Assembly: GCA_032128395.1 (NCBI GenBank) | Contig: JAQBGV010000184.1 | Span: 3,907-67,906 of the forward strand | Direction of reading: 5' to 3' | Length of the DNA: 64,000 bases | Source of the DNA: Planctomycetota bacterium | GTDB lineage: Bacteria > Planctomycetota > UBA8108 > UBA1146 | Notes under the pieces: generated by a model | Told to the model about the DNA's origin: nothing | The model's input: the letters and a program-made list of their open reading frames with translations, nothing else | The model's database searches: none | Part shown: piece after piece, positions 2,573 through 60,804 of the stretch | Layout of the letters: the number at the start of each line of letters is the position of its first letter | Position numbering within the stretch: position 1 is the first letter of the stretch | Position numbers and translations under genes: made by a program

Positions 2573-4104
2573 GAATTTCCGCCGAAGTGTACGACGAGCG
2601 GTCGGGACGCCCCGAGGCTCTCCCGAGACCACTCGACGGAGTGGAGATCGTCGCTCGCACCGGTGCGCGACAGCACGGTCCGTCACCGGTTGCAGCGTTC
2701 CGTACCCTCCGAACCGACGACCGCGCGAACCGAGGCGATCTCTTCGTCGCGATTCGCGGCGTTCACTACGACTCGCACCGCTCGATTTCCGAGCTACCAC
2801 GGTCCGGCGTCCTCGGGGTGGTGGCGGAGTCCGCTCCCCCCGCCGGCTATCCCCTCCCGTGGTTCGAGGTCGACGACACTCGCCGAGCCCTCGGGCGGCT
2901 CGAGCACGCGCGTTGGGGAGACCCTGCGCAACGACTGCGAGTCTTCGGAATCACCGGCACCAACGGGAAGTCCTCGACCGTCCGGATCCTCGCATCGATT
3001 TTCGAGGCGGCCGAAAGTTCCTGCGGATTCATGACCACGGTCTCCCGCTCGCTCGCCGGAACGGAGGAGCCGAGCGCGATGACGACCCCGGGGGCGAGCG
3101 ATCTCGCCGAGATGCTCGCGCGCTGCGTTGCCTACGGCAGCCGATCCGTGGTGCTGGAAGTCTCTTCCCACGCACTCGATCAGCACCGCGTCGAGGGGAT
3201 CCCCTTCGCCGGGGCCGCCATTACCCAACTCTCCCGAGACCATCTCGACTATCACGGGGACCTCCGTGCTTATCGAGATGCGAAGCTGCGCATCACGGAG
3301 CATCTGGCCGATGGAGCACCGATCGTTCTCCCGACCGATGAGACATTCCGCTCGGATCTCCCCGATCTTCCGGGGGTGCTCCTCAGGCACTCCATGAATG
3401 CGGAGCTTCTCGCCGGGGAGCGTGGGGGGACGGTGCGCGGAAGCGAGCTCGATGGTGAGGGAATCTCAGCGGAGCTGGAACTCCTCGGTGAGCGGCTCCT
3501 GATTCGAAGCACTCTGCGTGGCCGACACAACCTCGAGAACATCCTGACCGCCTCGACGCTCGCCCGCGCGGTGGGGATTTCGATGGAAGTGATCGCGAGC
3601 GGGATCGAACGGACCCCAGCGGTCCCAGGGCGACTCGAGGAAGTGAAGGGGAAGGTCGGACGGGGGAGGGTGTTCATCGACTACGCGCACACCCCGGACG
3701 CGCTCTCTGCGGTTCTCGAATCGCTGCGCGCGTGGCGTCCTCGACGACTCCTCGTGGTCTTCGGTTGCGGCGGGGATCGCGACCGTGGGAAGCGGCCAGA
3801 GATGGGAGCGGCAGCGGAGCGACTTGCCGACCGGGTCTTCGTGACCTCGGACAATCCTCGCGGGGAGGACCCCGGGGCGATCATCGACGACGTTCTCAGG
3901 GGGATCGAGGACCGCGGTCGTGTCGTCGTCGAGCCCGATCGCCGATCTGCGATCGCCGCGGCGGTGGCGGACCTGGGCGGGGAGGACCTTCTCGTCGTCG
4001 CAGGGAAGGGACACGAGAGGGAACAATGGATCGGCGGGACGAACATTCCCTTCGATGACCGACAGGTGGTCGCCGAACTCCTCGCCGCGGAGCCTCGGTC
4101 TTGA
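2548..4104 (+). CDS. murE: UDP-N-acetylmuramoyl-L-alanyl-D-glutamate--2,6-diaminopimelate ligase (start uncertain; the annotated ORF extends upstream into ftsI)
   Basis: Mur ligase P-loop GITGTNGKSST, C-terminal DNPR motif, position after ftsI. Confidence 0.8.
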   Translation: MGNSRRGLRISAEVYDERSGRPEALPRPLDGVEIVARTGARQHGPSPVAAFRTLRTDDRANRGDLFVAIRGVHYDSHRSISELPRSGVLGVVAESAPPAGYPLPWFEVDDTRRALGRLEHARWGDPAQRLRVFGITGTNGKSSTVRILASIFEAAESSCGFMTTVSRSLAGTEEPSAMTTPGASDLAEMLARCVAYGSRSVVLEVSSHALDQHRVEGIPFAGAAITQLSRDHLDYHGDLRAYRDAKLRITEHLADGAPIVLPTDETFRSDLPDLPGVLLRHSMNAELLAGERGGTVRGSELDGEGISAELELLGERLLIRSTLRGRHNLENILTASTLARAVGISMEVIASGIERTPAVPGRLEEVKGKVGRGRVFIDYAHTPDALSAVLESLRAWRPRRLLVVFGCGGDRDRGKRPEMGAAAERLADRVFVTSDNPRGEDPGAIIDDVLRGIEDRGRVVVEPDRRSAIAAAVADLGGEDLLVVAGKGHEREQWIGGTNIPFDDRQVVAELLAAEPRS

Positions 4105-32511: not shown

Positions 32512-33515
32512 TCCTGCGAGAAGAACACCAAACCTTCGATGAGATAGACCTCGCGGTTCTCGTAGATCCACCCCTCGTAGAATGAGTTCCCCTCGCGCTT
32601 CCAGGTGACACGATGCGGGTAGCCCCAGGCGAGGACGACTTCCTCTCGTTTCATCCCCTCCGCGACCTCATGTGACCCCGCCAGTTCTTTGTACTGCGGA
32701 GTGCTGCGCCCTCGGAGGAGGGAAGCTTGTTGGCGCCGCTCGCTCCAGCGCGCGATTTCATCGCGTAGGTGCGACTGATCGAGGGTCATCCGCTCCCCAT
32801 CCCGCTCGATCATGCCGGTCTCGTGCAGAAAAACGGATCGAGGTCGCCACCCCTTGCTCGACTCGATCAGTCCCAGGGACTCGAAGGTGCTCGTGACCGA
32901 GCGCTCGTTGCCGTACTTCTCGGCGAGTTGATTTGCGTAGGCGATCCATCGATCGTCCCCCTCGAAGTGCGGGTGGCCGATCTTGAGCCATGCGACTGCG
33001 GACTCCTGGTCGCGACCAAGTTCATCGGTGGCGAGGTCGGCCCAACGAGAGGCCACCTGTTCGCGGAACTCGATTTGTTCCTCACCGGTGGAGAGGCCGA
33101 GAGCCCAACCGATCACCGCTCGGCGGCGCGGGGACGGGGTCGAATCCAGGCGAGCAGAGAGCCCGGCGAACAAACTATCCGCCGCCGGTGTTCCCTGGAT
33201 GTCCTCCACCCGATACTCCCAACTCCCACCGTTCGATCGATTCGCGCGAGCGTGAATCTCGAGGATCCCTCGGCGGGTCTTCGAGTCCATGAGGACCTGG
33301 AATCGCTTCTCCTCAGGCACGATGAACTTCGCCTCGCACCCCTCGAGTTCCATTCGGACTCCGACTTGTGAGCTGTAGCGGGCGAGGACGCGGACCTGCG
33401 CTCCCTCGGTCGGCGAGAAGTGGGCGAGCTCCTCGGCGACGACCTGGGGTACGGTCTCCTCACCGCCGGGAGGCGCGACGAGGACGATGGCGAGGAGCAG
33501 CACGAGTCCGCTCAT
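32508..33515 (-). CDS. Secreted hypothetical protein, translationally coupled (ATGA overlap) to the upstream large regulatory protein; possible BamE-like C-terminal fold
   Basis: Signal/TM MSGLVLLLAIVLVAPPGG; coding-like; the annotated ORF start at 33626 is an extension. Confidence 0.45.
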   Translation of the reverse strand: MSGLVLLLAIVLVAPPGGEETVPQVVAEELAHFSPTEGAQVRVLARYSSQVGVRMELEGCEAKFIVPEEKRFQVLMDSKTRRGILEIHARANRSNGGSWEYRVEDIQGTPAADSLFAGLSARLDSTPSPRRRAVIGWALGLSTGEEQIEFREQVASRWADLATDELGRDQESAVAWLKIGHPHFEGDDRWIAYANQLAEKYGNERSVTSTFESLGLIESSKGWRPRSVFLHETGMIERDGERMTLDQSHLRDEIARWSERRQQASLLRGRSTPQYKELAGSHEVAEGMKREEVVLAWGYPHRVTWKREGNSFYEGWIYENREVYLIEGLVFFSQD

Positions 33516-36475
33516 CGAACTCTCCCTTCGAAGAGGAGCAGCTGGCCAGTCACGAGGAGGACGAGCACATCTCCGTCGGCAGTTGAGGCCAGACCCACGA
33601 CCGGGGCCGAGACCTGGATCGACCACTGCGGATCCCCGGTGGGGGAGACGCAGTACAGGCGACCATCGCGGCCGCCGAAGAACGTCTCCTCACCCGTCGT
33701 CAGCGGTGGACAGCTGAGGATCGTGGGGGCGGGGAACGCGGTCCACTTCGATCCGTCGAACTCGACCCATCGCCGATCCGTAGTCCCATAGAAGAGAGTG
33801 CCATCCCGTTCGACGACGTCGGTTGCAGGAGCGGGCCACTGCTCCACTCCCTCGGGCGCCTGGCGCGTCCCGTTACGGAGGAGCAGAGATCCATCGGAGA
33901 GAACCGCGGAGATCTCGCTCGGGTAGGCGCGCTCGTGGAGCAGCGCGAGGCCGGGGAGCTCGAGGATCCTCACCCGGTCGGCGCCATCGGTCACGACGAG
34001 CACGTCCCCTCGCACTGCGAGGCTCTTCACAGGGAATCCGGGTTCGGAACGGGCGATCACCCGACCGGTGTTCCGGTCGAGAAGTTGCACCCGCCCCGTC
34101 TCGTCCCCGATCGCCATGTCTCCCCCTGGAATCGAGCTGACCGCGAGTACCGGGGAATCGAGGCGGACCCCCCAACGGGTTTCCCAGCCAGTGGTCTCGA
34201 CGCAGTGGATCTCGCCGTCGTAGCCGGCGATCACGATCACATCTTCTTCCGCCACTACTCTCGCCGAGGGGTGCCCCGGTTTCCCACCGATGAACACCCG
34301 GCGGGCGGTCTTTGTGGCCTCTCGACTGTCGGGGAGCGCATAGACGCGTCCATCCCGACACGGGACCAGGATGAACCCTGGGATCGAGGTTGCGGCGCGA
34401 TCGAGCCCGCCGGGGAGAGCTCCCGCCGCGAGGGGGGCACGGGTCATCTGGATGCGAAGGCGAGCCCGGCCATCGTCGGTGTGTTTTAGCTCCTGGTCTT
34501 CGCAGCCGGGGCGGGACAGACGGATCACGAACGGCTCGGATCCCGGTTCGAAGTGATGGACGTAAGGGGTTCGACCGATGCCGACCCCCGCGACGTCGAT
34601 CCGCGCGCCGGGAGGGTCGGTCTCGATCGAGAGGGGGAGACGGATCTCCGCCTGGACCTCGAGGGGAAGGCTCCGGACCGGCCCCTCGAGGAGGCGATCG
34701 AGGGAGGCTCGCGCCTCCTTGAATCGACCCTCGTTCTCAGCGGTCCTCGAACTGGTGAGCAGCTCCTCTGCGTGCTGACGACGTCGCTCACGCGACTGAC
34801 GGTCGCGTTGCTCGAGGTCCTCGACGCGGGCCTTGTCTTCCTGCCGGAGGCGCACGATACGGGCATCGAGATCCTGGAGTGCGTCGCGGCTCCGTGACGC
34901 GACGGTGGACATCCCGTAGTCGGCGACGATCTCGCGGAGGTGCGCCCGTGCTTCCTCGAGTTGAACGGTCTCGGCCTCGGCGATCTGGAGGCGCAAGCTC
35001 TCCTGGAAGAGGCCCCGTGCACGGGTTTCGTAACGGAGTGCGGGAATCGCGGCGGCAACGATGAGGACGGTCGCGACGGTCAAAACGATGCGGCGAATGC
35101 GGCGAAATTTCTGGACTCCCTCCTCCCTGTGGATGAGGGACTCGAGCTTGTTGCGCAGCCCAGTGATCTCAGGGTCGATCTCAAACAGGAGTCGAGCGGC
35201 GCGAATCGACTCCGGTCGACTCTTCGTCTCTTCAGCGAGTCGGAGTGCCCGCTCGAGGTAGTCGACGGCGAGGCCGATCTGGCCGATCTTCTGGGCGAGT
35301 TCCCCGCGTTCCACCCAATACTGGAACTTGCCGCGTTCGCTCTCCTCGAGCTCAGCGAGAAGTGCTTCTGCCTCGTGGAACTCACCCTGCCGCTTGAGCG
35401 CGTTGAGTAGCTCGACTCGAAGCTCTTCGAGCGAACGAGGGGAGGCGGCACTGCGCAGGGTCCAGAGTTGTTGCAGGACCGCGAGGTCGTTCGGGTGGAG
35501 ATCGCGGAGGACCCGTCCGATCTCCCATGCCTCGGCCATCCGACTCTCGAGGCGGAGGCGCTCGAGCGCCTGGAAGAGGATTGCCGAGGCATCCTTCTTG
35601 CGTCCCACCTCGACCATGTAGCGGCCGACTTCGACCAGGAACGAGGCGTCCCGGCTCTGCGGGATCCCCCACTCCTGGAGGAAGCGGTAAAGATCGGCCG
35701 CGCGATCCCGCTCGTTGTGTTTCCGGTGCTGTCGCGCGACCTCGAGCATTTCGGTGAAGTCGAGGGTGCGGAGCCACCCCTCCTCCACGAACCGGTAGAG
35801 GATCTTCAGGGTCTGGAACCGACTGGTCGGGGCGACCCTTTGGATCTGCTCGACCGGGGCGGACTGCGCGCAGTACCCCCAGATCTCCCGGTCACGGTCG
35901 GAGATCTCGGCCCCGGCGGGAATCGCCTCGACCTGTCGGGCGACCCAGATCTTCGGATCGGGGAGCCGGGTTCTGATGATGCGGGACTCGTCGAGTTGAC
36001 GCAGACCCTCGATGAGCACCGACTGCGGGTCGACCCGGACCTGGGTGTACTTCTGCATGGGTTCGAGGAGATCGGGTGGACAGAAGTCGGGGACGAATTC
36101 GAAGTCCCCCTCTTCCCACATCAGGAGCTCGTAGAGCTCTTCCTCGAACTTGGTTCGGAGTGCGGCCTGGAGGTGTTCCGGCTCGATGACCCCCTGCTCG
36201 ATGAGGATGCGACCGAACAGCTTGTCAGAGTTCTTCTGCTCTTCGACCGCGGCTTCGATCTGTTCCCTGGAGACCACCCCGGCGCGCAGGAGGACCTCTC
36301 CTAGGAGGATCGTTCCGGACCCGGAACCGAGGAAAGCGATCGAGCCGGTCGCGAAGTATATCGTCTTTTTTTCGTGGCGGGAGGTGACGTAGAGGGTGCC
36401 GGTGTGCTGATTGCAGGCCAGGGTCTGGAAGAGTTCTCCCAAACCGAAGTGCTGCAAATGCCCTTTGAGCGCCAT
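33512..36475 (-). CDS. 987-aa multidomain membrane protein: DUF4388-like N-terminus, tandem MshEN/T2SSE_N motifs, helical/TPR-like region, TM helix, coiled coil, PEGA domain, PQQ-like beta-propeller
   Basis: MALKGHLQHFGLGELFQTLACNQHTGTLYV (DUF4388-like); LLGEVLLRAGVVSREQIEAAVEEQ...LFGRILIEQGVIEPEHLQAAL (MshEN motifs); TM VLTVATVLIVAAAIPAL; PEGA-like IDVAGVGIGRTPYVHHFEPG; PQQ blades. ATG at 36475 chosen; upstream 62 codons of the annotated ORF are rejected. Confidence 0.6.
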   Translation of the reverse strand: MALKGHLQHFGLGELFQTLACNQHTGTLYVTSRHEKKTIYFATGSIAFLGSGSGTILLGEVLLRAGVVSREQIEAAVEEQKNSDKLFGRILIEQGVIEPEHLQAALRTKFEEELYELLMWEEGDFEFVPDFCPPDLLEPMQKYTQVRVDPQSVLIEGLRQLDESRIIRTRLPDPKIWVARQVEAIPAGAEISDRDREIWGYCAQSAPVEQIQRVAPTSRFQTLKILYRFVEEGWLRTLDFTEMLEVARQHRKHNERDRAADLYRFLQEWGIPQSRDASFLVEVGRYMVEVGRKKDASAILFQALERLRLESRMAEAWEIGRVLRDLHPNDLAVLQQLWTLRSAASPRSLEELRVELLNALKRQGEFHEAEALLAELEESERGKFQYWVERGELAQKIGQIGLAVDYLERALRLAEETKSRPESIRAARLLFEIDPEITGLRNKLESLIHREEGVQKFRRIRRIVLTVATVLIVAAAIPALRYETRARGLFQESLRLQIAEAETVQLEEARAHLREIVADYGMSTVASRSRDALQDLDARIVRLRQEDKARVEDLEQRDRQSRERRRQHAEELLTSSRTAENEGRFKEARASLDRLLEGPVRSLPLEVQAEIRLPLSIETDPPGARIDVAGVGIGRTPYVHHFEPGSEPFVIRLSRPGCEDQELKHTDDGRARLRIQMTRAPLAAGALPGGLDRAATSIPGFILVPCRDGRVYALPDSREATKTARRVFIGGKPGHPSARVVAEEDVIVIAGYDGEIHCVETTGWETRWGVRLDSPVLAVSSIPGGDMAIGDETGRVQLLDRNTGRVIARSEPGFPVKSLAVRGDVLVVTDGADRVRILELPGLALLHERAYPSEISAVLSDGSLLLRNGTRQAPEGVEQWPAPATDVVERDGTLFYGTTDRRWVEFDGSKWTAFPAPTILSCPPLTTGEETFFGGRDGRLYCVSPTGDPQWSIQVSAPVVGLASTADGDVLVLLVTGQLLLFEGRVR

Positions 36476-36645
36476 GCTTGCTCCGGCTCGACCCACGGTT
36501 CGCCTATGCCGATTCGGCCGGGGCGAACGGAACCGAAGACCGCGGAGCACCCCCCCATTCCCGGACTCCCGCGGAGGAGGATGGTCCTCGACGCCGGGGG
36601 AGGTACGATCCGGGATCGCTCGCCTGCGATCTCCGAGAAGGATAC

Positions 36646-37887
36646 GGCATGACTCTCGCATCGACGAACGAGGAGGGGGACCGGAGCCGCGTCCAACCCC
36701 GAGTTCAGCTCTCCCCGGGGCTCTATGTCCACATCCCGTTCTGTACGGTCCGGTGCTCGTATTGTGACTTTCACGTCGCCGGATTTCGGGAGGGGATCGC
36801 GGTTCGATACGTGGACACGCTCCTCGAGGAGGCGCGAGAATTGTCTGAGGAGGGGTTTCGTCCGCAGACGATCTTCATCGGCGGAGGGACGCCATCCACG
36901 CTCGCGATCCGCGACTGGACGAGGCTCCTCGGTGGATTGTCGGAGTTCTTCGGTGGGGAACAGCTTCTCGAGTGGACCGTCGAAGCAAATCCGGGGACGG
37001 TCGACGGTCCGAAGGCCCGCATCGCTCGGGATGCGGGGGTGGATCGGATCAGTACCGGCGCACAGACCTTCGACCCGGCGGGACTCGCGGTCCTCGGAAG
37101 GCAACATGGAGCCGATGTGGTCGCTGGCGCCCACGAGATCCTGCGCGATGCGGGATTCGAGCGGCTGAGTCTCGACCTGATCATCGGGTGGCCAGGACAG
37201 ACGATCGACTCCCTCGCCGGGGATCTCCGCGCGATCGCAGAGATCGATCCCGACCATGTCAGCCTGTATCACCTCAGCTACGAGAAGGGGACGCTGCTCG
37301 AGCGCAGACGTCTCGCGGGACAAATTGCTCCACTGTCGGACCCCGCAGCGCTCCGGGTCGCGCGTCGCGCATTGGGCGGCTTGGGCGCAGCGGGCTATAC
37401 TCGCTACGAGGTGTCGAACCTCTGCCGATCCGGGCAGGCCTCGCTGCACAACCTCAACTACTGGCAGCGTGGGACCTACCGCGGGATCGGGTCCGGGGCC
37501 GCGAGCTTCGACGGCCGCCTGCGCTGGCGAAACCGACCGGATGTCGGCGCATACCTGCGAGGAGGCGGCCGACCGGAGCGGGTCGAGGTGGAGGAGCTCA
37601 GTGCGGAGACCGCACTCGAGGAGCTCCTCCTCCTCACCCTGCGGCTGACGGATGGGATCACCCTCGACCGGTTCTGGGAGTTCGCGGGCACCTCGCCACA
37701 GGATTTGTGCCGGGAGGCCCTGCCCGAGTTGGTCGAAGCGGGTCTCCTCTGCTGCGACGATGGAACGATGCGGGCCACGGCACGTGGCTTCGAGGTGCTC
37801 GACGCTGTGATCGTGCGCCTCTGGGAAGACTGTCAGCGTTTCGCGAGGCGAAGAGAATGTCCCAGCCGAACTCCTCTCCAGACTTGA
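36646..37887 (+). CDS. hemW: Radical SAM HemN/HemW-family protein (heme chaperone / oxygen-independent coproporphyrinogen oxidase-like)
   Basis: LYVHIPFCTVRCSYCDF CxxxCxxC radical SAM motif, HemN_C-like tail; the annotated ORF start at 36478 is likely an extension. Confidence 0.75.
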   Translation, partial: GMTLASTNEEGDRSRVQPRVQLSPGLYVHIPFCTVRCSYCDFHVAGFREGIAVRYVDTLLEEARELSEEGFRPQTIFIGGGTPSTLAIRDWTRLLGGLSEFFGGEQLLEWTVEANPGTVDGPKARIARDAGVDRISTGAQTFDPAGLAVLGRQHGADVVAGAHEILRDAGFERLSLDLIIGWPGQTIDSLAGDLRAIAEIDPDHVSLYHLSYEKGTLLERRRLAGQIAPLSDPAALRVARRALGGLGAAGYTRYEVSNLCRSGQASLHNLNYWQRGTYRGIGSGAASFDGRLRWRNRPDVGAYLRGGGRPERVEVEELSAETALEELLLLTLRLTDGITLDRFWEFAGTSPQDLCREALPELVEAGLLCCDDGTMRATARGFEVLDAVIVRLWEDCQRFARRRECPSRTPLQT

Positions 37888-38438
37888 TGTTGCTCCTTCG
37901 GATGATCCGCTACCGCGGATGGCTCGAGGAGCCGGAAATCGAGTCCGTTCTTTCCGAGTGTGGAATGCAGGTGAGCGCGGACGAGCTCCTCGAGTTCCTC
38001 TGCGATGGCGAGCACCTCAGCTCGGACCAGGCCGAAGATGCCCGCCGGTTCCTCCGCGAGAAGAGCCGCTCCCTGCGCCTGAACTCGGGGGATCGGTTCC
38101 GGATCGACCGGAGCTTCGGGCAGATCGCGCTCGAGCACGGCTGGCTCGACGCCCCGGGGCTCGAAGCGGCCCTCCTCGAGCAGGAGCGCCTCAGGCGCCT
38201 GCGCCTGAACTTCAGAATCGGTGAGGTCCTGGTTCGACTCGGTTCCCTCCAGGTCGACCAGGTTCGGTCGATTCTGAAGGAGCAGGGATTCGACCTCTCT
38301 TGCTGTCGCGATTGCGACACACTGATCGAGGGCGCCACCAGCGATGTGGGGGACGGGACCTGCCCCGAGTGTGGCGGCGAACTCCGTCCCCCCGTGTTCC
38401 TCGATCCCGTCCCCGCCGACCGCCACAGGTCGAAGTAG
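37857..38438 (+). CDS. MshEN-like tandem-motif protein with C-terminal four-Cys zinc ribbon
   Basis: FGQIALEHGWLDAPGLEAALLEQ and RIGEVLVRLGSLQVDQVRSILKEQ motifs; CCRDCD...CPECGG; the long annotated ORF from 36972 is artefactual upstream of this Met. Confidence 0.45.
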   Translation: MSQPNSSPDLMLLLRMIRYRGWLEEPEIESVLSECGMQVSADELLEFLCDGEHLSSDQAEDARRFLREKSRSLRLNSGDRFRIDRSFGQIALEHGWLDAPGLEAALLEQERLRRLRLNFRIGEVLVRLGSLQVDQVRSILKEQGFDLSCCRDCDTLIEGATSDVGDGTCPECGGELRPPVFLDPVPADRHRSK

Positions 38439-38596
38439 CGGATCGCGTCCCGACCTCGCGCCATCCCTGGCAATTCGCCTGAGAAAGTGCTTCCGATCCG
38501 AACGATCGGAAGCACTCTCTCATCCTAGTGTTGGCACCAGGCTCTTGCTTCCGTCCCGATCCCAGGTTGGCATCGGGGCCGGGACCGAGTCCCGGG

Positions 38597-39184
38597 ATGG
38601 GAGGCGGCATGGATCCGAGAGAACTCTTGCTCGGACGTGAGCTCGTCGCGAGCGAACTTCTGCGCCCTGAGCACCTTCGGATCGCGCTCGACTATCAGGC
38701 CCAGTTGCACGGCCGGCTCGAGGACATTCTGGTCAAGCTCGACTTCATCGACGAGCGGAAGCTGAGTGAGTTCGTCGCCGAGCGCGAGCATATGCGCACC
38801 GTCGACCTCACCAGTCGGGAGATCGACGAACAGCTGATGGAGCGGATCCCTCGCGACGTGATCGAGCGGCACGAAGTGCTGCCGTTCCGACTCGACGCCG
38901 AGACGGTCCTCCTCGCGATGAGCGATCCGACTGATTTCCGGGCGATCGACGAGGTGCAGTTCCTGACGAGTTGCAAGGTCGAGACCGCCATCGCCCCGCG
39001 CACCGCCCTCCGGGAGCGGATCGAACGATACTACGACACCCTCCCTGCACCCCCGCCCGCCCCGCTTCCGCTCGAGGAGCGACTCCTCGAGCGGGTTGCG
39101 GATCCCGCGATGCAGGCGCTGGCCCGGATTCTCCTGCGCAAGGGCGTCATTCAAGCGGAGGATTGGGAGCAGGAGATTCGCTAG
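38597..39184 (+). CDS. Stand-alone T2SSE_N (GspE/PilB N-terminal) domain protein
   Basis: LLGRELVASELLRPEHLRIALDYQ...LEDILVKLDFIDERKLSEFVAE...IDEQLMERIPRDVIERHEVLPFRLDAETVLLAMSDPTDFRAIDEVQFLT matches the GspE N1 domain consensus end to end. Confidence 0.6.
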   Translation: MGGGMDPRELLLGRELVASELLRPEHLRIALDYQAQLHGRLEDILVKLDFIDERKLSEFVAEREHMRTVDLTSREIDEQLMERIPRDVIERHEVLPFRLDAETVLLAMSDPTDFRAIDEVQFLTSCKVETAIAPRTALRERIERYYDTLPAPPPAPLPLEERLLERVADPAMQALARILLRKGVIQAEDWEQEIR

Positions 39185-39295: not shown

Positions 39296-39964
39296 CTAGT
39301 CGTAGAGATCGTCCCCGCGTGCTCCGCGATCGAGCGTGCCGTTCTCGGAGACGCTCTCGTCGAGGCAATTCGGGCCGGTCGAGTAGACTCGCCAGCTTCC
39401 GTCCTCGGCGAGGAGGCGGTAGGGCGCTCCGAACGGATCGAGCAAGCTACCCACAGGGGAGATCGGAATTCCCTCGAATGCCTTCGGGTCCGCGGCGCGC
39501 AACGTCTCACCCCATCGCTCGATCAGGGGACTCCCGCCGGGGGCCGGCAGGTGCTTCTCGACCGCGCTCTGGATCTTCTCGATCTGGTCGTGGGTCTGGT
39601 CGATGAGCTTGAGTTGAGCTCGCCCCCCCGACAGCGTCCCGATCATGAGCTCCACGGCGAGGAGGAGGACGAAAACGACGCCGATCAGGAACGGGAGAAG
39701 CGCCAGCGAGACACGTCGGGGGTGCCCGCTCGCAGACCGGAGCGGTTCGCGGAACTGGAGATGGCGCGGCGGTGGCGACTCGATCCTGCCGAGCTGCCAA
39801 CGAAGGAGCTCCTGGTCGAGGCGGATCGCGTCTGCAAGCTCCCGGCAACTCCAGCAGCGCTGCAGATGGTCCTCGGCCTCGACCGAGGTCAGATCCTCAC
39901 AGACCCATGCCTCGAGCGCGCGCCGGCACTCCTCCGGGAGCACGCCGGGGGAATTCGTGCTCAT
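39296..39964 (-). CDS. Anti-sigma factor (zf-HC2) fused to a pseudopilin-like TM helix and GspG-like periplasmic domain
   Basis: N-terminal HLQRCWSCREL motif; TM LLLAVELMIGTLSG resembling the pilin hydrophobic helix with Glu; C-terminal DPFGAPYRLLAEDGSWRVYSTGPN...GDDL resembling the GspG DPWGNxYxL...G.DG region; ATGA overlap with upstream ECF sigma. Confidence 0.55.
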   Translation of the reverse strand: MSTNSPGVLPEECRRALEAWVCEDLTSVEAEDHLQRCWSCRELADAIRLDQELLRWQLGRIESPPPRHLQFREPLRSASGHPRRVSLALLPFLIGVVFVLLLAVELMIGTLSGGRAQLKLIDQTHDQIEKIQSAVEKHLPAPGGSPLIERWGETLRAADPKAFEGIPISPVGSLLDPFGAPYRLLAEDGSWRVYSTGPNCLDESVSENGTLDRGARGDDLYD

Positions 39965-40602
39965 TCTCGATCTCCTTCTCCGGAATCTGTCTTTTCGACC
40001 TCCCGCGATTCCCGCGGCAGGGATTCCTTCGCGAGCCTCTCGCGGAGGAGCAGATGCGCACGAAAGATCCGGTTCCGGATCGTTCCCTCCGGCTCTTCGA
40101 GGAGTCGCGCGATCTGAGCCGGGGTCAGCCCCGACCAGTATCTCAGGATCAAGACCGTGCGGTACAGCTCGGGGATCTCCCCGAGAATCGTGCGGAGAGC
40201 CTCTGCTCGCTGCGGGTCGAGCCCAGGCTCGCCAGCGCTCACCTCGGCGGGTTCTTCACGCTCGGGTAGCCGGGTCTCGGGCCTCACCCCGAACCATCGG
40301 TGCGAGTCGATCACCTTTCTCGACGCGATCGCGAGTATCCAGGAGACCGCGCTCTCCGAATTCCGCAGTGAGCCACGCTTCTCCCAGGCCTGGAGAAAGC
40401 TCTCCTGAGTCAGATCCTCGGCTCGCTCTCGGTCCGAAATCCGCTGCCGGATGAAGACGTAGACGAGCCCCCAGAGTTGCTCGACAACCCGGTGGAAGGC
40501 TTCGCGATCCCCCGCGAAGGCGAGCCGGAGGGTATCCGGATCGGGTCGGTGTCGTTTCCCACCCTGCTCGTTGGTCCGATCCTCGGCCTCCTCCGAGCAC
40601 AT
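39961..40602 (-). CDS. ECF (group IV) sigma-70 factor
   Basis: Region 2 EDLTQESFLQAWEK, region 4 VLILRYWSGLTPAQIARLLEEPEGTIRNRIFRAHLLL. Confidence 0.8.
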   Translation of the reverse strand: MCSEEAEDRTNEQGGKRHRPDPDTLRLAFAGDREAFHRVVEQLWGLVYVFIRQRISDRERAEDLTQESFLQAWEKRGSLRNSESAVSWILAIASRKVIDSHRWFGVRPETRLPEREEPAEVSAGEPGLDPQRAEALRTILGEIPELYRTVLILRYWSGLTPAQIARLLEEPEGTIRNRIFRAHLLLRERLAKESLPRESREVEKTDSGEGDRE

Positions 40603-40784
40603 CCTGAGGTCCCTTCGACCGAGGGGAGTCGTGTCGCATCCACCCGCAGCTGGAGACGTTGCGGCGACGGGGCCGTTGCTCCTCCGTTTGACGCCGGCTC
40701 GTACCCCATCATAGGCTTCCTCAAGGAACCATCGATGGATCGAACCTCACCAGATCCTCGGACACAGGATGGGGAACGGGTGCA

Positions 40785-41789
40785 ATGGCGAAGAAGAAGA
40801 AGAGCGAAGAAGAGTTGTCTCCGGCGATGCAGACGGAGGACCTGACCGGTGCATTCCCCCCGGGGGACTTCACCGGCTCCTTCCCGACCGAAGGGCTCGG
40901 CCATCCGGTCGGCGCGACCGGGGAGCATGGGCTCCGGACCGAAGGTCACTCCGGTGACCTTGGCATGCCGACGGAGGGATTCACGGGTGAGCAGCCGATC
41001 CCGACGGAGGGTTTTACTTCCTCCTACGGCATGCCCACCAGCAGCATGACCGGGGACCATGGCATTTTGCCCACGGAGGGATTCATCGCGCATGGAGCAC
41101 CGATGGGAGGCCAGGAGCTCGATGAACTCGATGACGTGCTCGTTCTCCTCCCGGAGGAAGACGACGTACGGGGCTACACCGGCGAGGTGATCCGCACCGA
41201 GGGGATGGGTGATCCGACGATCCAAGCGACGACCGGGTACGTGCCTTCGAGCGAGTCCCCGACCGGGATCGAGGATGTCCAACTCCTTTCACAGCATCCC
41301 GACTTCGGGTTGCACCCAGTCGACACTCTCCCTGACGCGCAGGTCCTCGAAGAGCTCCCCGACATCGAAGATGTCGAGGACATCACCTCCCTCGTCGAGG
41401 AGGCAGTCGCCTACGACCTCCCCCCGCCGATGGCGGACTTCGAAGATGAGTTCGGCGCGATGCCGAGCCGCTCCGGTCGCCGTCGAAGCGGCTTCGGCGC
41501 GTTTCTCCGTATTGCCGCCGCGGCCGCGTTGCTCGTGACCGGGGTTCTCTACGGACCGGAGCTCTACGACCGCTATCTCGAGCAGGGCAACACAGCCCTC
41601 GCGAGCGGCTCGAACGGCGGCGGTGGCACGTCCACGGGCCCACCCGTGGCGATCACCGATCCCGTCACCACTGGCCCGGGATCCGGTGACCCAGGGGCCG
41701 GTGTCCATCCGGTCCAGGTCCAGTTTCGGGATTGGGTCGATGGGGTGTTGGCCGCAAACTTCGGGACCAACGTCCCGTCGGATCGATAG
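40785..41789 (+). CDS. Acidic hypothetical protein with degenerate (P/R)TEG(F/L/H) repeats and a C-terminal hydrophobic segment
   Basis: Six spaced xTEGx repeats mirrored by repeated ccgacggagggattcac DNA units; TM-like FGAFLRIAAAAALLVTGVLYG. Confidence 0.4.
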   Translation: MAKKKKSEEELSPAMQTEDLTGAFPPGDFTGSFPTEGLGHPVGATGEHGLRTEGHSGDLGMPTEGFTGEQPIPTEGFTSSYGMPTSSMTGDHGILPTEGFIAHGAPMGGQELDELDDVLVLLPEEDDVRGYTGEVIRTEGMGDPTIQATTGYVPSSESPTGIEDVQLLSQHPDFGLHPVDTLPDAQVLEELPDIEDVEDITSLVEEAVAYDLPPPMADFEDEFGAMPSRSGRRRSGFGAFLRIAAAAALLVTGVLYGPELYDRYLEQGNTALASGSNGGGGTSTGPPVAITDPVTTGPGSGDPGAGVHPVQVQFRDWVDGVLAANFGTNVPSDR

Positions 41790-41807: not shown

Positions 41808-42722
41808 ATGAAGCGCTACCTGATCGGGACCACATTTGCCTCTCTGCTGCTCGTCCTCGCCTGCTCGGCCCCGGCCGAGGCGGGAAGCGTCTTCCTGAAG
41901 AACGGCTACATCCTTCAGGGCCGGATCGTCGAGCGCGGCGAGGGAGTCGTCGTCCTCGGATGGCAGAACGGCAGAGTGACGATCCACGATCGATTCATCG
42001 ATGAAGTCCTCCTGGATCCCTCCGAGGAGGAGATGATTCGCAGCAAGCGAGAGCTCGATGCGGTCGAAGCGGAGCAGACCGCCGTCGCGATCGAGGACTT
42101 CACCCTACGAAGCAATGAGGTGATCGCCCTTCCGGTGAGTTACCAGTCGATCCTCACACGCGACACGTCTGATCCGGGGACTCCGATCGGCCCCGGCGGG
42201 GCCATGACCATCGTGGATCCACTCGCCCAGGTGACGACCGATCCCAGGGGATCGACCCCTGGAACCGTGGTCGGAGTCGTCCCGAGTCCCTCCGATTTGG
42301 AAAAAATATTTCCGGCTCTCGGGGTGGCGATCGAGGTCCCCGAAGGGTGGCGGGTCGATGAGAAGCCCGACTCGCTGCGAGTCGGATTGGTGGGGAAGCC
42401 CGCAGTCGCCGCGCTCACCGTCGACCTCTGGCACGGGAAGAACCTCAAGGCACTCGAGGCTCTCCGCATCATCGAAGACAGTCTCACCTCGAGCTTTCCG
42501 TCCGCCTCGATCGAAGCGGGTGCGGAGATGGTCATCGGCGGAAAAGCCGCGATTTCATTGGTCTGCCGCGATACGGAGAGGCGAATCGGGTGCCGTCAAA
42601 ATGTGATCGAGACGTTGAACGGAGTGTTCGTGCTGGGCATGTACCTCCCGCTCGATGCCGATCCGACGATGGCACTCGCACTCGATGATGTTCTGACTTC
42701 GCTTCGCTTCATCTCCGAGTAG
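41808..42722 (+). CDS. Secreted hypothetical protein with signal peptide
   Basis: MKRYLIGTTFASLLLVLACSAPAEA signal; coding-like composition; no recognizable domain. Confidence 0.45.
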   Translation: MKRYLIGTTFASLLLVLACSAPAEAGSVFLKNGYILQGRIVERGEGVVVLGWQNGRVTIHDRFIDEVLLDPSEEEMIRSKRELDAVEAEQTAVAIEDFTLRSNEVIALPVSYQSILTRDTSDPGTPIGPGGAMTIVDPLAQVTTDPRGSTPGTVVGVVPSPSDLEKIFPALGVAIEVPEGWRVDEKPDSLRVGLVGKPAVAALTVDLWHGKNLKALEALRIIEDSLTSSFPSASIEAGAEMVIGGKAAISLVCRDTERRIGCRQNVIETLNGVFVLGMYLPLDADPTMALALDDVLTSLRFISE

Positions 42723-55690: not shown

Positions 55691-56860
55691 ATGCTCAGTC
55701 AGCGCGTCCGTACCATCGAGCCGTCCGCGACCTTGGGGATGAACACCGCGATTCAGAAGTTGCGGGCCGCGGGGCAGGACATCATCAACTTCAGCGTCGG
55801 GGAGCCCGATTTCGACACTCCGGAGTTCATCCGGGAGGCGGCGAAGCGCGCGATCGATGCCGGTCAGACCCGGTACACGCCGGTGCCGGGCACTACGGAA
55901 TTGCGCGCAGCGGTCGCGGACTTCGTCGGGTCGGTGCGCGGCGAGTCGGTGCGTCCGGAAGAAGTGATCATCACGAGCGGGGCGAAGCAGGCGCTCGCCG
56001 AAGCGCTGACCGCGCTCTGCGATCCCGGCGACGAAGTTCTGCTTCCTGCACCGTACTGGGTGAGCTACCCCGACGAGATTCGCATCACCGATGCGATCCC
56101 GGTCGTCGTCACCCCACCCGCGGAGACCGGCTTCCGCGTGACACCCGAATCTCTCGCCCCCTACGTCACACCCCGCACCATCGGACTCATCCTGAACAGT
56201 CCGAGCAATCCTACCGGCGCCGTGCTCTCCGCCGACGAGATCACCGCCTTCGTCGAGTTCGCCGAGCAGCACGACCTCTGGATCCTCTCCGATGAGATCT
56301 ACGAGCGCTTCGTCTTCGACGGGACCTTCGCGAGCCCGTTCTCCGGGGAGGGGCGTGCGCGCACGATTCTCGTCAGCGGGCTGTCGAAGTCGTTTGCGAT
56401 GACCGGTTGGCGGATCGGTTGGGCCGTCGCGGATCCCGCATTGATCTCCGGGATGTCGCGACTCCAGAGTCACATCGCTTCGAACGCCTGCTCGATCTCG
56501 CAGGCGGCGGCGCTGGAGGCGGTGCGGAATCCCGATCACCCGGACCTCCTGGCGATGCTCGGTGCATTCGCGGCTCGTCGCACCCGGGCCCTCGAGATCC
56601 TCGGGGAGATCGAGGGGCTCGCCGTTCTCCCCCCCGAGGGTGCCTTCTACCTCTTCGTCGACCTCCGGGCCTTCCTCGGTGCCGCCGGACCGCGTGCAGG
56701 AAGCGCTCTCTGTCAGGAGCTGCTCGAGGATCGCGGGGTCGCGACGGTGCCCGGCGATGCCTTCGGGCTCCCGGGGTGGGCGCGAATCTCGACGGCGCGT
56801 TCGATGGAGGAGATCGAGCGCGGCCTAGGGATTCTGGGGGAGTTTCTTCGAGCGCGCTGA
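55691..56860 (+). CDS. Class I/II pyridoxal-phosphate aminotransferase (aspartate aminotransferase-like)
   Basis: SGLSKSFAMTGWRIGW PLP-lysine region, SNPTG motif; N-terminal MLSQRVRTIEPSATL. Confidence 0.85.
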   Translation: MLSQRVRTIEPSATLGMNTAIQKLRAAGQDIINFSVGEPDFDTPEFIREAAKRAIDAGQTRYTPVPGTTELRAAVADFVGSVRGESVRPEEVIITSGAKQALAEALTALCDPGDEVLLPAPYWVSYPDEIRITDAIPVVVTPPAETGFRVTPESLAPYVTPRTIGLILNSPSNPTGAVLSADEITAFVEFAEQHDLWILSDEIYERFVFDGTFASPFSGEGRARTILVSGLSKSFAMTGWRIGWAVADPALISGMSRLQSHIASNACSISQAAALEAVRNPDHPDLLAMLGAFAARRTRALEILGEIEGLAVLPPEGAFYLFVDLRAFLGAAGPRAGSALCQELLEDRGVATVPGDAFGLPGWARISTARSMEEIERGLGILGEFLRAR

Positions 56861-57051
56861 CCCTCGAGTCTCCCCAAACTCGACCCCGATCCGGGAGCGA
56901 CCGCACGAGTGTCGGATCCAAGTCGGGGTCGGGTTCGCTCCAACCCTGGATTTCACACCCAACTGCCGCTTACAATTCGACTTCGGCGGGTGGTTCACGC
57001 GCGCCGCCCCCGCGACCCGTGTCGACCGATGCCGGTGGAGAGGCAAACACG

Positions 57052-59097
57052 ATGAAGACGCTTCCTGGACGAACTCCTCTTGTAGTGATTCTGTTGCTCG
57101 GAATCACCCTGCTCGTTCCGATCGGAATGCGGGCGGTCGTCGCCGCGACGCCGGACGAGACCGCGATCTCCCTCGACGATGACCTCGAGCAGCTGAAACA
57201 GCGCTTCGAGAACGAGATCGAGAAGATGCGCGCGGAATTCCAGCGCGAACTCGAGCGGGTGCAGGGAACAGATCAGCGCACCGAACTGCGCAGAGCGCGG
57301 GAGCGCATCGAAGAACTCGAGCAAGAGAACGCCAGACTGCGGCGTGCGGTCCGAGAGCTCCGCGGTGCCGCAGGAGCGGGCGGTGAGGCAGGAGCGGAGA
57401 GGGAGCGCTTGCCAGAGCCACGCGGCGAACGTCCTCGCGGGATGCTCGGAGTGACCCTCTCGGGCGCCGATCCCGAACTCGCAGAGAGTCTCCGGGTCGA
57501 TGCCGAGAATTGTGTGCAGATCACCGGGATCCAGGCTGGGAGTCCGGCGGCCCGGATGGGGCTGCGCTCCGGCGACATGATCACTTCGTTCGATGGCAAC
57601 GAGGGGAACCTCGAGGCGTTCGTCGCACACATGAGTAAGAAGCGCGCCGGCGACGAGGTCGTCATCACGTACGCCCGTCGCCAGGAGTCCGGCGACATTT
57701 TGCGAATCACCGGACGCACCGAGTTGATGGCGTGGCGCGAGCCGACTGCGACCGACCTTCGGCCGTTGATCGTGGCAGAGCCTCGCAACGACCCTCCTCC
57801 CTCCAGGGGACCGATCTCTCTCGGGGTCTCCGTCGTCGCGAGCGAAGCGGGGAACGGAGTCGTGGTCACCGATGTGACGGAAGATGGGAATGCCGCCGCG
57901 GCGAAGATCGAGACCGATGACCGGATCGTCCGTTTCGGGGAGAGCACGATCGGTTCGATCGACGATCTGCGCGGTGCGTTGCAGCAAGTCTCCTCGGGGG
58001 ACGCGGTCACGATCCAGTTCGTCCGCGGAGGCGCCCAGTGGCAGAGCCGAGTGCGACTCTCCCATCGCGCTGGCAGCGCCGAGATTCTTCACGGCCCCGA
58101 TCGAGTCGGGGGGGGTGAAGTGCGTGGAGATGGCGGCTCGAATCGCCAGCCCGGATTCCTCGGCATCGCCATCGATCCGGAGGCGGAAGGGCTCGCGGTC
58201 GGAGAGGTCGTGGCGGGGAGCACCGCCGAGGCGATGGGACTCTTGGTCGGAGATCGGATCGTCTCCGTCAACGACTCCCGGGTTCGTACCAGCGCTGAGC
58301 TGAGATCTGCCCTCACCGCCCTTTTCGCCGGCGACCGCATCTTCATGACGGTGCGCCGCGGCGGGGCGAGGCAGAACGTCGAAGGGACCCTCGGGGCGCG
58401 TCCGGAGGAGCGCGAGCAGTCCCGGGTACCGGTGGCGAGCCCGGCGAGGGTTCGCACCGTTGCCGCACGAACGGCTGAGGCCGCTCTCGTGAACGCTGCC
58501 GCTCCCACCGTCGAGCCCCGAGGCGAGCTCGGGGTGATCGTCGTCGAGCGCGAGGGTGCCGTCGTCATCGAGGAAATCCCCCGAGGGAGCGCGGCGGGGG
58601 CCGCCGGGGCCCGGAGCGGCGACACGATCCGCCGGATCGAGGGGCGCACGGTCGACGGATTCGCATCGATCGAGACCGTCCTCACCAGCCGCAGCGCTGG
58701 AGATCGGATCGCGCTCACGGTCGAGAGGGACGGACGGCCGATCGAGCTCCGAGTGACCTTGGCCGGGGCGACTCGAGACGTGCCCCTTCCGAGCAAGCCC
58801 CTCGAGGCCACGACTCCGGTGCGACAGATCGCTCCCGTCGGCACGCCACACCTCGGTCTCGAGGTCGAGGAGCGCGCCGACGGAATCTGGATCGTCGCGA
58901 TCGATTCCGGAGCCCCCGCCGCCTCGGCCGGACTGCGGATCGGGGACCGCGTGCTCACCCTCGGGGGGATCGAGGTCACCGATCTCGGTTCGATGCACAG
59001 AGCGGTCGACGGGCTGCGCGGGCAAGAGTCCTCCGAAGTCACCGTTTGGCGCGGAGACCACGAGGAGCGCCGTGAGGTGACCCCCCAACCGCGGTGA
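57052..59097 (+). CDS. Periplasmic protein with signal peptide, coiled coil and five PDZ domains, no protease domain (annotated ORF begins 56407)
   Basis: Signal MKTLPGRTPLVVILLLGITLLVPIG; five GxxAGLRxGDxI-type PDZ carboxylate-binding/beta blocks. Confidence 0.6.
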   Translation: MKTLPGRTPLVVILLLGITLLVPIGMRAVVAATPDETAISLDDDLEQLKQRFENEIEKMRAEFQRELERVQGTDQRTELRRARERIEELEQENARLRRAVRELRGAAGAGGEAGAERERLPEPRGERPRGMLGVTLSGADPELAESLRVDAENCVQITGIQAGSPAARMGLRSGDMITSFDGNEGNLEAFVAHMSKKRAGDEVVITYARRQESGDILRITGRTELMAWREPTATDLRPLIVAEPRNDPPPSRGPISLGVSVVASEAGNGVVVTDVTEDGNAAAAKIETDDRIVRFGESTIGSIDDLRGALQQVSSGDAVTIQFVRGGAQWQSRVRLSHRAGSAEILHGPDRVGGGEVRGDGGSNRQPGFLGIAIDPEAEGLAVGEVVAGSTAEAMGLLVGDRIVSVNDSRVRTSAELRSALTALFAGDRIFMTVRRGGARQNVEGTLGARPEEREQSRVPVASPARVRTVAARTAEAALVNAAAPTVEPRGELGVIVVEREGAVVIEEIPRGSAAGAAGARSGDTIRRIEGRTVDGFASIETVLTSRSAGDRIALTVERDGRPIELRVTLAGATRDVPLPSKPLEATTPVRQIAPVGTPHLGLEVEERADGIWIVAIDSGAPAASAGLRIGDRVLTLGGIEVTDLGSMHRAVDGLRGQESSEVTVWRGDHEERREVTPQPR

Positions 59098-59712: not shown

Positions 59713-60804
59713 GTGACTCCGATCGATCTCTTCACCAGCTTCGCAACTCTCCTCGGAGCGTGTGTCGGCAGCTTCCTCAACGTCTGCATCTATCGCATTC
59801 CCACCGAGGGGATGACGATCGCCCGGCCACGAGGCTCGTTCTGTCCGAAGTGCCGTGCCCCGATTCGTTGGCACGACAACATCCCGATCCTCGCCTGGCT
59901 AGCCCTCGGCGGGAAGTGCCGCGCCTGTCGCGCTCCGATCTCCTGGCGATATCCGGTGATCGAGCTCCTGACCGCAGCCCTCTTTCTCGTCATTTGGCTC
60001 CGCTTCGGTCCCAGCGACGCGACCGAACTCCCATCGCTCGCGATGTGGGGGACGGTGGCCTTCTGGTGGGCGACCTTCGCCGCGATGTTGGTCATTGCGA
60101 TGATCGACATCGACCACCGAATCATCCCTGACGAGATCAGCGTCACCGGCGGTGCGGCGATCCTCCTCGTCGTCCCCCTCCTCCACGGGGTTCCCCCCGA
60201 CCGGTCTGGGCTCGAGACGATCCAGCGGGTGCTCGAGCCGCTCGATCGGGCCATCGCCCCCGGGTCCGGGTCCTGGATCCAGGGCGGACTGGCGTTGTGC
60301 TTCGGAGCGGCGGCGATGGCGGCGATGCGGCGCTTCAGTCGCGACTGGCAGGGGAATCGGCGGACTTGGTGGGGGACCCGCTGGGCCGGCGCGGTCGGGG
60401 CTGTGGCCGGGATCGGGGTCGGAGGGCTGCTCTGCCACACTCTTTGGCTCCATGGGCCGTCCGCGGCCGCGCTCGTTCCCTCTCTCCTCGGCTCGGCGAT
60501 CGGGGCGGGCACGATCTACGCGATCGGCGTCGCCGGGAAGCTGGCGTTCCGAAAAGAGGCGATGGGATTCGGCGACGTGAAGCTGATGGGGCTGCTCGGT
60601 GCATTTCTCGGCCTCCAGTACGTCTTGCTCGCGATCTTCGTGGCGAGCTTTCTCGGATCCGTGATCGGGGTCGGGCTGCGACTCATCACTCGATCGAGCT
60701 ACATCCCCTTCGGGCCGTTCCTCTGCGCGGGAGCCTCGATCTTGGTGCTTGCGAGCGATCAGGTCGACGCCGCGATTCGATGGTATCTCAGTCTGTTCCG
60801 GTGA
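59713..60804 (+). CDS. pilD: Type IV prepilin peptidase (A24 family)
   Basis: N-terminal CxxC...CxxC zinc-binding (CPKCRAPI...CRACRAPI), conserved DIDH... and GFGDVKL motifs. Confidence 0.8.
   Translation: MTPIDLFTSFATLLGACVGSFLNVCIYRIPTEGMTIARPRGSFCPKCRAPIRWHDNIPILAWLALGGKCRACRAPISWRYPVIELLTAALFLVIWLRFGPSDATELPSLAMWGTVAFWWATFAAMLVIAMIDIDHRIIPDEISVTGGAAILLVVPLLHGVPPDRSGLETIQRVLEPLDRAIAPGSGSWIQGGLALCFGAAAMAAMRRFSRDWQGNRRTWWGTRWAGAVGAVAGIGVGGLLCHTLWLHGPSAAALVPSLLGSAIGAGTIYAIGVAGKLAFRKEAMGFGDVKLMGLLGAFLGLQYVLLAIFVASFLGSVIGVGLRLITRSSYIPFGPFLCAGASILVLASDQVDAAIRWYLSLFR

Follow-up and report, generated by a model that had tools for sequence, protein, structure and literature searches.

What does a membrane protein with a pilin-like outer domain do when its gene directly follows that of a sigma factor? 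Pairs of extracytoplasmic function (ECF) sigma factors and anti-sigma factors are among the main bacterial routes for envelope sensing, and for most of these pairs we know of no identified input signal. We present here an analysis of one such pair, encoded at positions 39296-40602 of a 64,000-nucleotide stretch of DNA (the window; positions 3,907 to 67,906 of contig JAQBGV010000184.1, GenBank assembly GCA_032128395.1) from an uncultured planctomycete. An earlier note, made from the sequence of the window alone, had read the second gene of the pair as an anti-sigma factor fused to a module resembling GspG, the major pseudopilin of the type II secretion system (T2SS), and had proposed that release of the sigma factor is coupled to pseudopilus assembly or to PilD.

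On the minus strand, the interval 39296-40602 contains exactly two open reading frames (ORFs). The first encodes a 213-amino-acid (aa) ECF (group 4) factor of the sigma-70 family (39961..40602), and the second encodes a candidate anti-sigma factor of 222 aa plus stop (39296..39964), recognized from the ORF list, its homologues, and the sigma gene directly upstream. The sigma stop codon and the anti-sigma start codon overlap by 4 bases (ATGA), and the two genes are co-transcribed. The G+C content is ~65% throughout the window, and many spurious ORFs therefore overlap this region; the homologues and domain matches belong to the sigma and anti-sigma ORFs. In Pfam, the sigma factor matches Sigma70_r2 (1.4e-9; 38 bits, cut-off 24), Sigma70_r4_2 (2.1e-13; 50.1 bits, cut-off 25.7), and Sigma70_r4 (2.7e-8), and it also matches TIGR02937 sigma70-ECF (71.5 bits, cut-off 42.9). 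It is small, with regions 2 and 4 as the only domains detected and without regions 1 and 3, and it scores below every equivalog and subfamily cut-off, so that no named ECF group is assigned to it here. In the window, as in each of the related loci (9 of 9), the gene directly upstream of the anti-sigma gene, in the same orientation, encodes an ECF sigma factor. Identity between the window sigma and its counterparts in three of these loci (L001-L003) is 56-65%. The pairing of an ECF sigma factor with a single-pass protein, as first proposed, is borne out by these matches and by the 4-base overlap.

Relatives of the 222-aa protein form ten clusters, 42-52% identical to it, in a collection of 5.8 billion proteins. 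All are unnamed or labeled "hypothetical," and those with a taxon label come from Planctomycetota metagenome bins. The family is rare: among 185,579 species, each represented by one genome, only three loci encode a relative. An alignment of ten members displays three conserved blocks, namely, an N-terminal Cys/His block, the segment ASGHPRRVSL, and a C-terminal block with the pattern LDxYGxPYRL...W+..SAGPD...GDDL. The protein contains a single hydrophobic segment (residues 85-108; Kyte-Doolittle 19-residue maximum, 2.86), the N-terminal flank of which carries a net charge of +3 and predicts an N-in/C-out topology. For one relative, P0008, the called gene (192 aa; L003 4086-4847) starts too late; the ORF continues upstream as far as the stop codon of the sigma gene, and the family profile aligns to it in full, so the missing N terminus is a gene-calling artefact.

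The predicted periplasmic domain (residues 113-222; 39299..39628, minus strand), with the core LDPFGAPYRL...WRVYSTGPN...GDDL, is by sequence comparison very probably a homologue, highly divergent, of the T2SSG domain found in GspG-type pseudopilins. Profile A2, made from a family-only alignment of residues 113-222 in nine members, retrieved 414 matches at an E value of ≤1e-3 among 1.84 billion representative proteins. The Pfam scan of these matches took in the 122 of ≤640 aa, of which 81 are T2SSG-positive at an E value of ≤1e-3 (best, 4.4e-29). Alignments of A2 to T2SSG-positive proteins span profile positions ~3-104, which is the whole domain, at library-wide E values of 1e-5 to 1e-7. The matches include a bona fide prepilin, P0154 (N_methyl, 33.4 bits; T2SSG, 44.4 bits), to which A2 aligns over positions 7-102. 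The second-iteration profile, A4, matches eight distinct solved sequences of the GspG/EpsG/PulG/XcpT type (E values, 3.3e-8 to 1.2e-4), and its alignment to solved GspG sequences covers the entire soluble domain. Comparison of the family-only alignment with three solved GspG sequences using hhalign gave a probability of 88% and an E value of 3e-6 around a DPWG..Y...S.GPDG core, in an alignment of 32 columns only. A reciprocal profile built without any family member scored 36.9 bits on the window ORF.

The details of the domain agree with this relationship. The SxGPD...DD segment of the family aligns with the GPDG...DDI region of GspG, which we take to be the calcium-binding loop of that protein. 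Residues W151, D176, W191, S195, G197, and DD217-218 are invariant in the nine-member alignment, which speaks for selection on the periplasmic domain and against a passive anchor. The AlphaFold model (mean predicted local distance difference test [pLDDT] score, 79; ~90 over most of residues 121-190) contains helices at residues 86-138 and 151-158, the second of them short, followed by a hairpin at 181-195, in a pilin-type fold.

At the other end of the protein, residues 1-62 (39779..39964, minus strand) are predicted to form a cytoplasmic domain of three helices (pLDDT, 85) that bears the zinc anti-sigma (ZAS) motif C13 ... H33-x3-C37-x2-C40. These four candidate zinc ligands are invariant in the ten aligned family members and are spaced as in RsrA and RsiW; Cys22 is also nearly invariant. 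The HxxxCxxC element falls within HLQRCWSCREL (residues 33-43) and is placed by the model at the junction of helices 2 and 3. The domain would bind zinc as well as the sigma factor. Taking the motif, the fold, and the gene context together, we are confident, if slightly less so than for the homology of the periplasmic domain, that the 222-aa protein is a ZAS-type anti-sigma factor. The strongest argument for this identity is the ECF sigma gene that lies upstream not only in the window but in every one of the nine related loci.

A single transmembrane (TM) helix (residues ~85-111; 39632..39712, minus strand), identified from hydropathy and the AlphaFold2 model, connects the two domains and runs into the first helix of the periplasmic domain, giving one continuous predicted helix over residues 86-138 (53 residues). 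The membrane part holds an invariant proline, P91, and a non-conserved glutamate, E104. On the cytoplasmic side of the helix lies the juxtamembrane motif ASGHPRRVSL (residues 78-87; 39704..39733, minus strand), all 10 positions of which are invariant in family alignment A1 and which is left unstructured in the model, with low pLDDT. When the protein is placed in the register of PulG, this motif falls where a prepilin has its leader and cleavage site (RRV/SLALL versus QRG/FTLLE, with the slash at the cleavage position). PulG residues Phe1, Gly(-1), and Glu5 then correspond to Ser86, Val85, and Leu90, and PulG residue 31 corresponds to approximately residue 116, with the helix continuous.

The sequence AVELMIG in this helix had been taken as a retained pilin signature. 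That claim fails: only 5 of 10 homologues have E104, which aligns with approximately PulG residue 19, out of register with Glu5. The absence of a prepilin cleavage site, also claimed, is confirmed: no family member contains a prepilin motif matched by a regular expression (regex), Pfam N_methyl does not match the window protein, and an 85-residue folded domain precedes the helix where a class III signal peptide would stand. G80 is an unlikely site for prepilin peptidase: it is followed by His-Pro-Arg-Arg, position +5 is not a Glu, and the basic residues stand on its C-terminal side instead of preceding it. With neither the Gly-Phe-Thr-Leu-x-Glu prepilin site nor Glu5, the protein would not be processed or polymerized. 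It is best described as a complete pseudopilin-shaped module in which the leader is replaced by an 85-residue cytoplasmic domain and which is not processable.

The same combination recurs elsewhere. Among the top 150 matches of the C-domain profile, three further proteins, P0097 (locus L006), P0120 (L004), and P0126 (L005), have an HxxxCxxC motif, one membrane helix, and a T2SSG-like domain. They share with the window protein the three-part ZAS-TM-T2SSG layout and the position immediately after an ECF sigma gene, each in a different neighborhood. They differ from the window family in those neighborhoods and in their N-terminal domains, where similarity is confined to the HxxxCxxC motif (~7-12 bits), and their sigma factors share only 29-35% identity with the window sigma; P0120 is a singleton when used as a homology query. 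Judged by these comparisons, the three proteins represent one design in families that are separate from the window family or that diverged from it very long ago. The Pfam threshold for T2SSG is passed by P0120 and P0126 (23.7 and 23.6 bits), and that for zf-HC2 is passed by P0097 (30 bits); because none of them passes both, the combination goes unnoticed. That one layout occurs in no fewer than four distinct sigma/anti-sigma families suggests a sensor design that can be reused, and not a single isolated fusion.

On balance, we favor as probable the reading that this is a ZAS anti-sigma factor with a GspG-like periplasmic input module, from which the sigma factor is released in response to an envelope signal. 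The cytoplasmic ZAS domain would hold the sigma factor inactive at the membrane, and the pilin-like domain would serve as an extracytoplasmic input module that binds a ligand or a partner. An envelope signal acting on the periplasmic domain would inactivate the anti-sigma factor, most likely through regulated proteolysis with intramembrane cleavage as its last step, and the sigma factor would be released. The invariant Pro91 in the membrane helix would fit a site-2 protease substrate.

Two groups of known proteins frame this reading. With RsiW of Bacillus subtilis, the membrane-anchored class I ZAS partner of SigW (PDB accession number 5wuq), the system shares adjacent sigma and anti-sigma genes in one operon, with the stop/start overlap in the window pair. 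Like RsiW-type anti-sigma factors, the window protein also has a cytoplasmic domain, helical in the model, with HxxxCxxC and an upstream ligand, one TM helix, and an extracytoplasmic C-terminal domain; unlike theirs, its extracytoplasmic domain has a predicted pilin-type fold. With the major pseudopilins GspG, EpsG, and PulG (PF08334; PDB accession numbers 4lw9, 1t92, 5wda, and 2kep), the protein shares a long helix with its first half in the membrane, an alpha-beta loop containing a short helix, and then a beta-hairpin and a GPDG...DD loop at the C terminus, and its predicted N-in/C-out orientation is that of an uncleaved prepilin. It differs from them in having an 85-residue folded cytoplasmic domain in place of a leader of 6-8 residues, in lacking a class III signal peptide, Gly(-1)/Phe1, Glu5, and an N_methyl match, in scoring below the Pfam T2SSG threshold, and in being encoded outside any gsp operon. 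Without these pilin signals and outside such an operon, it is not expected to be cleaved, methylated, or polymerized.

Several results weigh against parts of the favored reading. The 222-aa protein has no relevant match in Pfam or NCBIfam. Pfam T2SSG gives no match to it at an E value of ≤10, and 1 of 10 family members reaches an E value of 0.2; zf-HC2, in a difference from the RsiW type, also gives no match to it, with one sub-threshold member (best E value, 0.45) among the ten scanned. Family-only profiles searched against PDB sequences found no solved GspG with the C-terminal domain and no solved anti-sigma factor with either the N-terminal domain or the whole protein. Foldseek, run with the full model against the PDB, returned nothing at an E value of ≤0.001. 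The fourth helix usual in a class I anti-sigma domain is not predicted; in its place, unlike in RsiW-type proteins, is an invariant extended segment ending in ASGHPRRVSL. Residues 62-85 are of low confidence in the model yet partly invariant in the family. In the P0010 lineage (L002 6001-6603; L009), the protein is 200 aa long and stops right after the beta-hairpin, without the C-terminal GPD...DD loop. This lineage was seen on >100 contigs, and its periplasmic domain is degenerate in part. A role as a sensor and release by proteolysis would follow by analogy with RseA/RsiW-type systems, in which regulated proteolysis releases the sigma factor. A match of GHPRRV to PriB in the PDB sequence search is a chance match.

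For the domain calls of the earlier note, the outcome is mixed. On the single sequence, neither T2SSG nor zf-HC2 is found by direct Pfam comparison, so that both outcomes named in the note as refuting its reading formally apply at that level. The GspG-like part is rescued by the sensitive tests, that is, the family-only and iterated profiles, the hhalign comparison, and the reciprocal profile. The zf-HC2 call, with no profile match, rests on the invariant HxxxCxxC motif, the helical model, and the sigma gene context. The segment ASGHPRRVSL could be the missing contact to sigma region 2 or a protease site.

Might the module instead tie transcription to a secretion or pilus machine? An unprocessed pseudopilin module could dock on a T2SS or type IV filament platform or on a pseudopilus, or PilD could act on it, and sigma release would then report the assembly or activity of the machine. 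The retained pilin layout speaks for such coupling, with a predicted helix of 53 residues (86-138), the start of which is in register with PulG Phe1, followed by the alpha-beta loop and the beta-hairpin, and so does conservation of the GPDG...DDI region, which is the calcium site of GspG. PilD is encoded in the same genome, at 59713..60804 (plus strand), as previously claimed (A24_N_bact, 8.8e-33; Peptidase_A24, 1e-12), and convergent on the anti-sigma gene is a gene for a stand-alone MshEN-domain protein (38528-39184, plus strand; 1.4e-23). MshEN is otherwise the N-terminal domain of T2SS and pilus ATPases, and this neighbor is a weak thematic link to T2SS and pili.

Against coupling stand the absence of an in-register Gly(-1), of Glu5, and of a short leader, and the lack of conservation of E104. 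The genome context points the same way: none of the ten loci (the window and nine related loci) has T2SS or type IV pilus genes (GspD/E/F, pilins, or PilD) adjoining the pair, and the 64-kb window contains no other T2SSG-like ORF or prepilin motif. The PilD gene is 20 kb from the pair, between the gene for a PDZ protein and that for EF-G, which begins ~1.2 kb downstream, and we rejected its proximity as a sign of coupling. The PDZ protein, encoded just upstream of PilD, is 896 aa long (56407-59097, plus strand) and has five PDZ domains and an OmpH-like stretch, with no peptidase domain detected.

Coupling is also opposed by the distribution of the domain itself, which occurs mostly in non-pilin secreted proteins. 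Among the 122 scanned A2 matches, N_methyl is present in only 2, and so in at most 2 of the 81 T2SSG-positive ones, and TonB_C is present in 16; the prepilin regex is matched by 3 of 146 retrieved proteins. At the N terminus, many A2 matches have a plain membrane anchor or an ordinary signal peptide. In 99 retrieved proteins, two to four domain matches each (domain E value, ≤1e-3) were found, with up to five matched stretches per protein in the search of 1.84 billion proteins. The T2SSG-like modules among P0011-P0156 occur mostly in non-pilin proteins, among them membrane-anchored proteins of ~140 aa and signal-peptide proteins that have 2-5 modules in tandem and in some cases reach 2000 aa. 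Outside its own family, the window C-terminal domain has its closest sequence relatives in such non-pilin proteins (e.g., P0071, ~140 aa, and the signal-peptide proteins that carry 2-5 repeats and in some cases TonB_C). They share its divergent module, the DPWGxPYR...SAGPD...DD core, and the absence of a prepilin site; most differ from it in lacking a cytoplasmic ZAS domain and, among those checked, an adjacent sigma factor. By sequence, the GspG-like fold is widely used outside pili, which lowers the prior for pseudopilus assembly. We therefore consider the proposed coupling to a pseudopilus, T2SS, or PilD unlikely.

A different alternative shifts the sensor to the cytoplasm. The ZAS domain could be a thiol/zinc redox switch that senses oxidative or thiol-reactive stress, as RsrA does, with the helix and the periplasmic domain serving only to localize it. 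The four invariant zinc-ligand candidates and the nearly invariant Cys22 would suit such a switch, for which RsrA sets a precedent. RsrA, however, is a soluble redox-sensing ZAS protein; for RsiW and other ZAS proteins anchored in the membrane, release comes through proteolysis and not through redox sensing. The invariant periplasmic residues, and the fact that three other families also combine the periplasmic domain with an ECF pair, are hard to square with a passive anchor. We rate this explanation as improbable, a little more so than coupling to a filament machine.

Less probable again, and in our view a long shot, is a "frozen prepilin," in which the helix and the GspG-like head engage a filament or T2SS platform, or prepilin peptidase cuts near ASGHPRRVSL at the cytoplasmic face, and the state of the machine switches the ECF sigma factor. 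If true, it would be a previously unknown wiring of a filament machine to transcription. That the GspG likeness is chance or a convergent short motif (DPxGxPY...SxGPD) in an unrelated periplasmic domain would fit the missing direct Pfam match (best T2SSG E value of the family, 0.2), the lack of a PDB sequence found by the family-only profile, the 32 hhalign columns, and the negative Foldseek result, but it is highly improbable given that the family-only profile covers the whole domain of T2SSG-positive proteins, that two-thirds of the scanned matches (81/122) are T2SSG-positive, and that the alignment of the iterated profile with the soluble domains of GspG runs over their entire length.

Beyond the pair, the ZAS anti-sigma gene is followed by genes convergent on it. 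Past the MshEN gene lie those for a 184-aa protein with a C-terminal CxxC...CxxC (37884-38438, plus strand) and a HemN-like radical SAM enzyme (36478-37887, plus strand). This trio is complete in L001 and L003; in L002, a short gene stands beside the anti-sigma gene, with no MshEN match on record. A 1049-aa protein (33512-36661, minus strand) has PatA_N/DUF4388, tetratricopeptide repeat (TPR), PEGA, and PQQ-type beta-propeller matches, and a counterpart is located beside the HemN-like gene in L001 and L002. On the other side of the pair are two divergent genes, one for an acidic protein that has PTEGF-like repeats and, C-terminally, a membrane helix (40785-41789, plus strand) and one for a signal-peptide protein (41808-42722, plus strand), both with no Pfam match. 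These unannotated envelope proteins are kept in L001 and L002 and are candidate regulon members. Because the relatives that share this gene order are close, it may reflect common inheritance and not function.

Between the sigma gene and the gene at 40785..41789 is a conserved block (40687..40719), a candidate promoter common to the window and L001-L003, with one copy in each. It reads TTGACG-N18-TAGGCT on the plus strand and GAAGCCTATGATGGGG...CGTCAAA on the minus strand. Its sequence could represent a promoter of the divergent genes or an autoregulated ECF promoter. A simple sigma-70 promoter scan did not call the block, and a search for the regulon through further copies found only the one copy in the 64-kb window.

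A literature search for an anti-sigma factor paired with a T2SSG, GspG, or pseudopilin domain found no description among the papers searched, and the main texts of the two large ECF/anti-sigma classification papers do not mention the architecture. These results, together with the fact that the named family members are all "hypothetical protein," fit the original claim that the architecture is undescribed. The extracytoplasmic domains of anti-sigma factors are known to be very diverse, and the ZAS-TM-T2SSG pair is therefore not a new kind of system; it leaves the accepted view of how anti-sigma factors work unchanged. The use of GspG-like modules outside pili is a caution against labeling every T2SSG match as a secretion component. 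What the pair would add, if the periplasmic domain is an input module as we think probable, is the pilin-type (GspG) fold as a new extracytoplasmic input domain of anti-sigma factors, one that is invisible to standard annotation.

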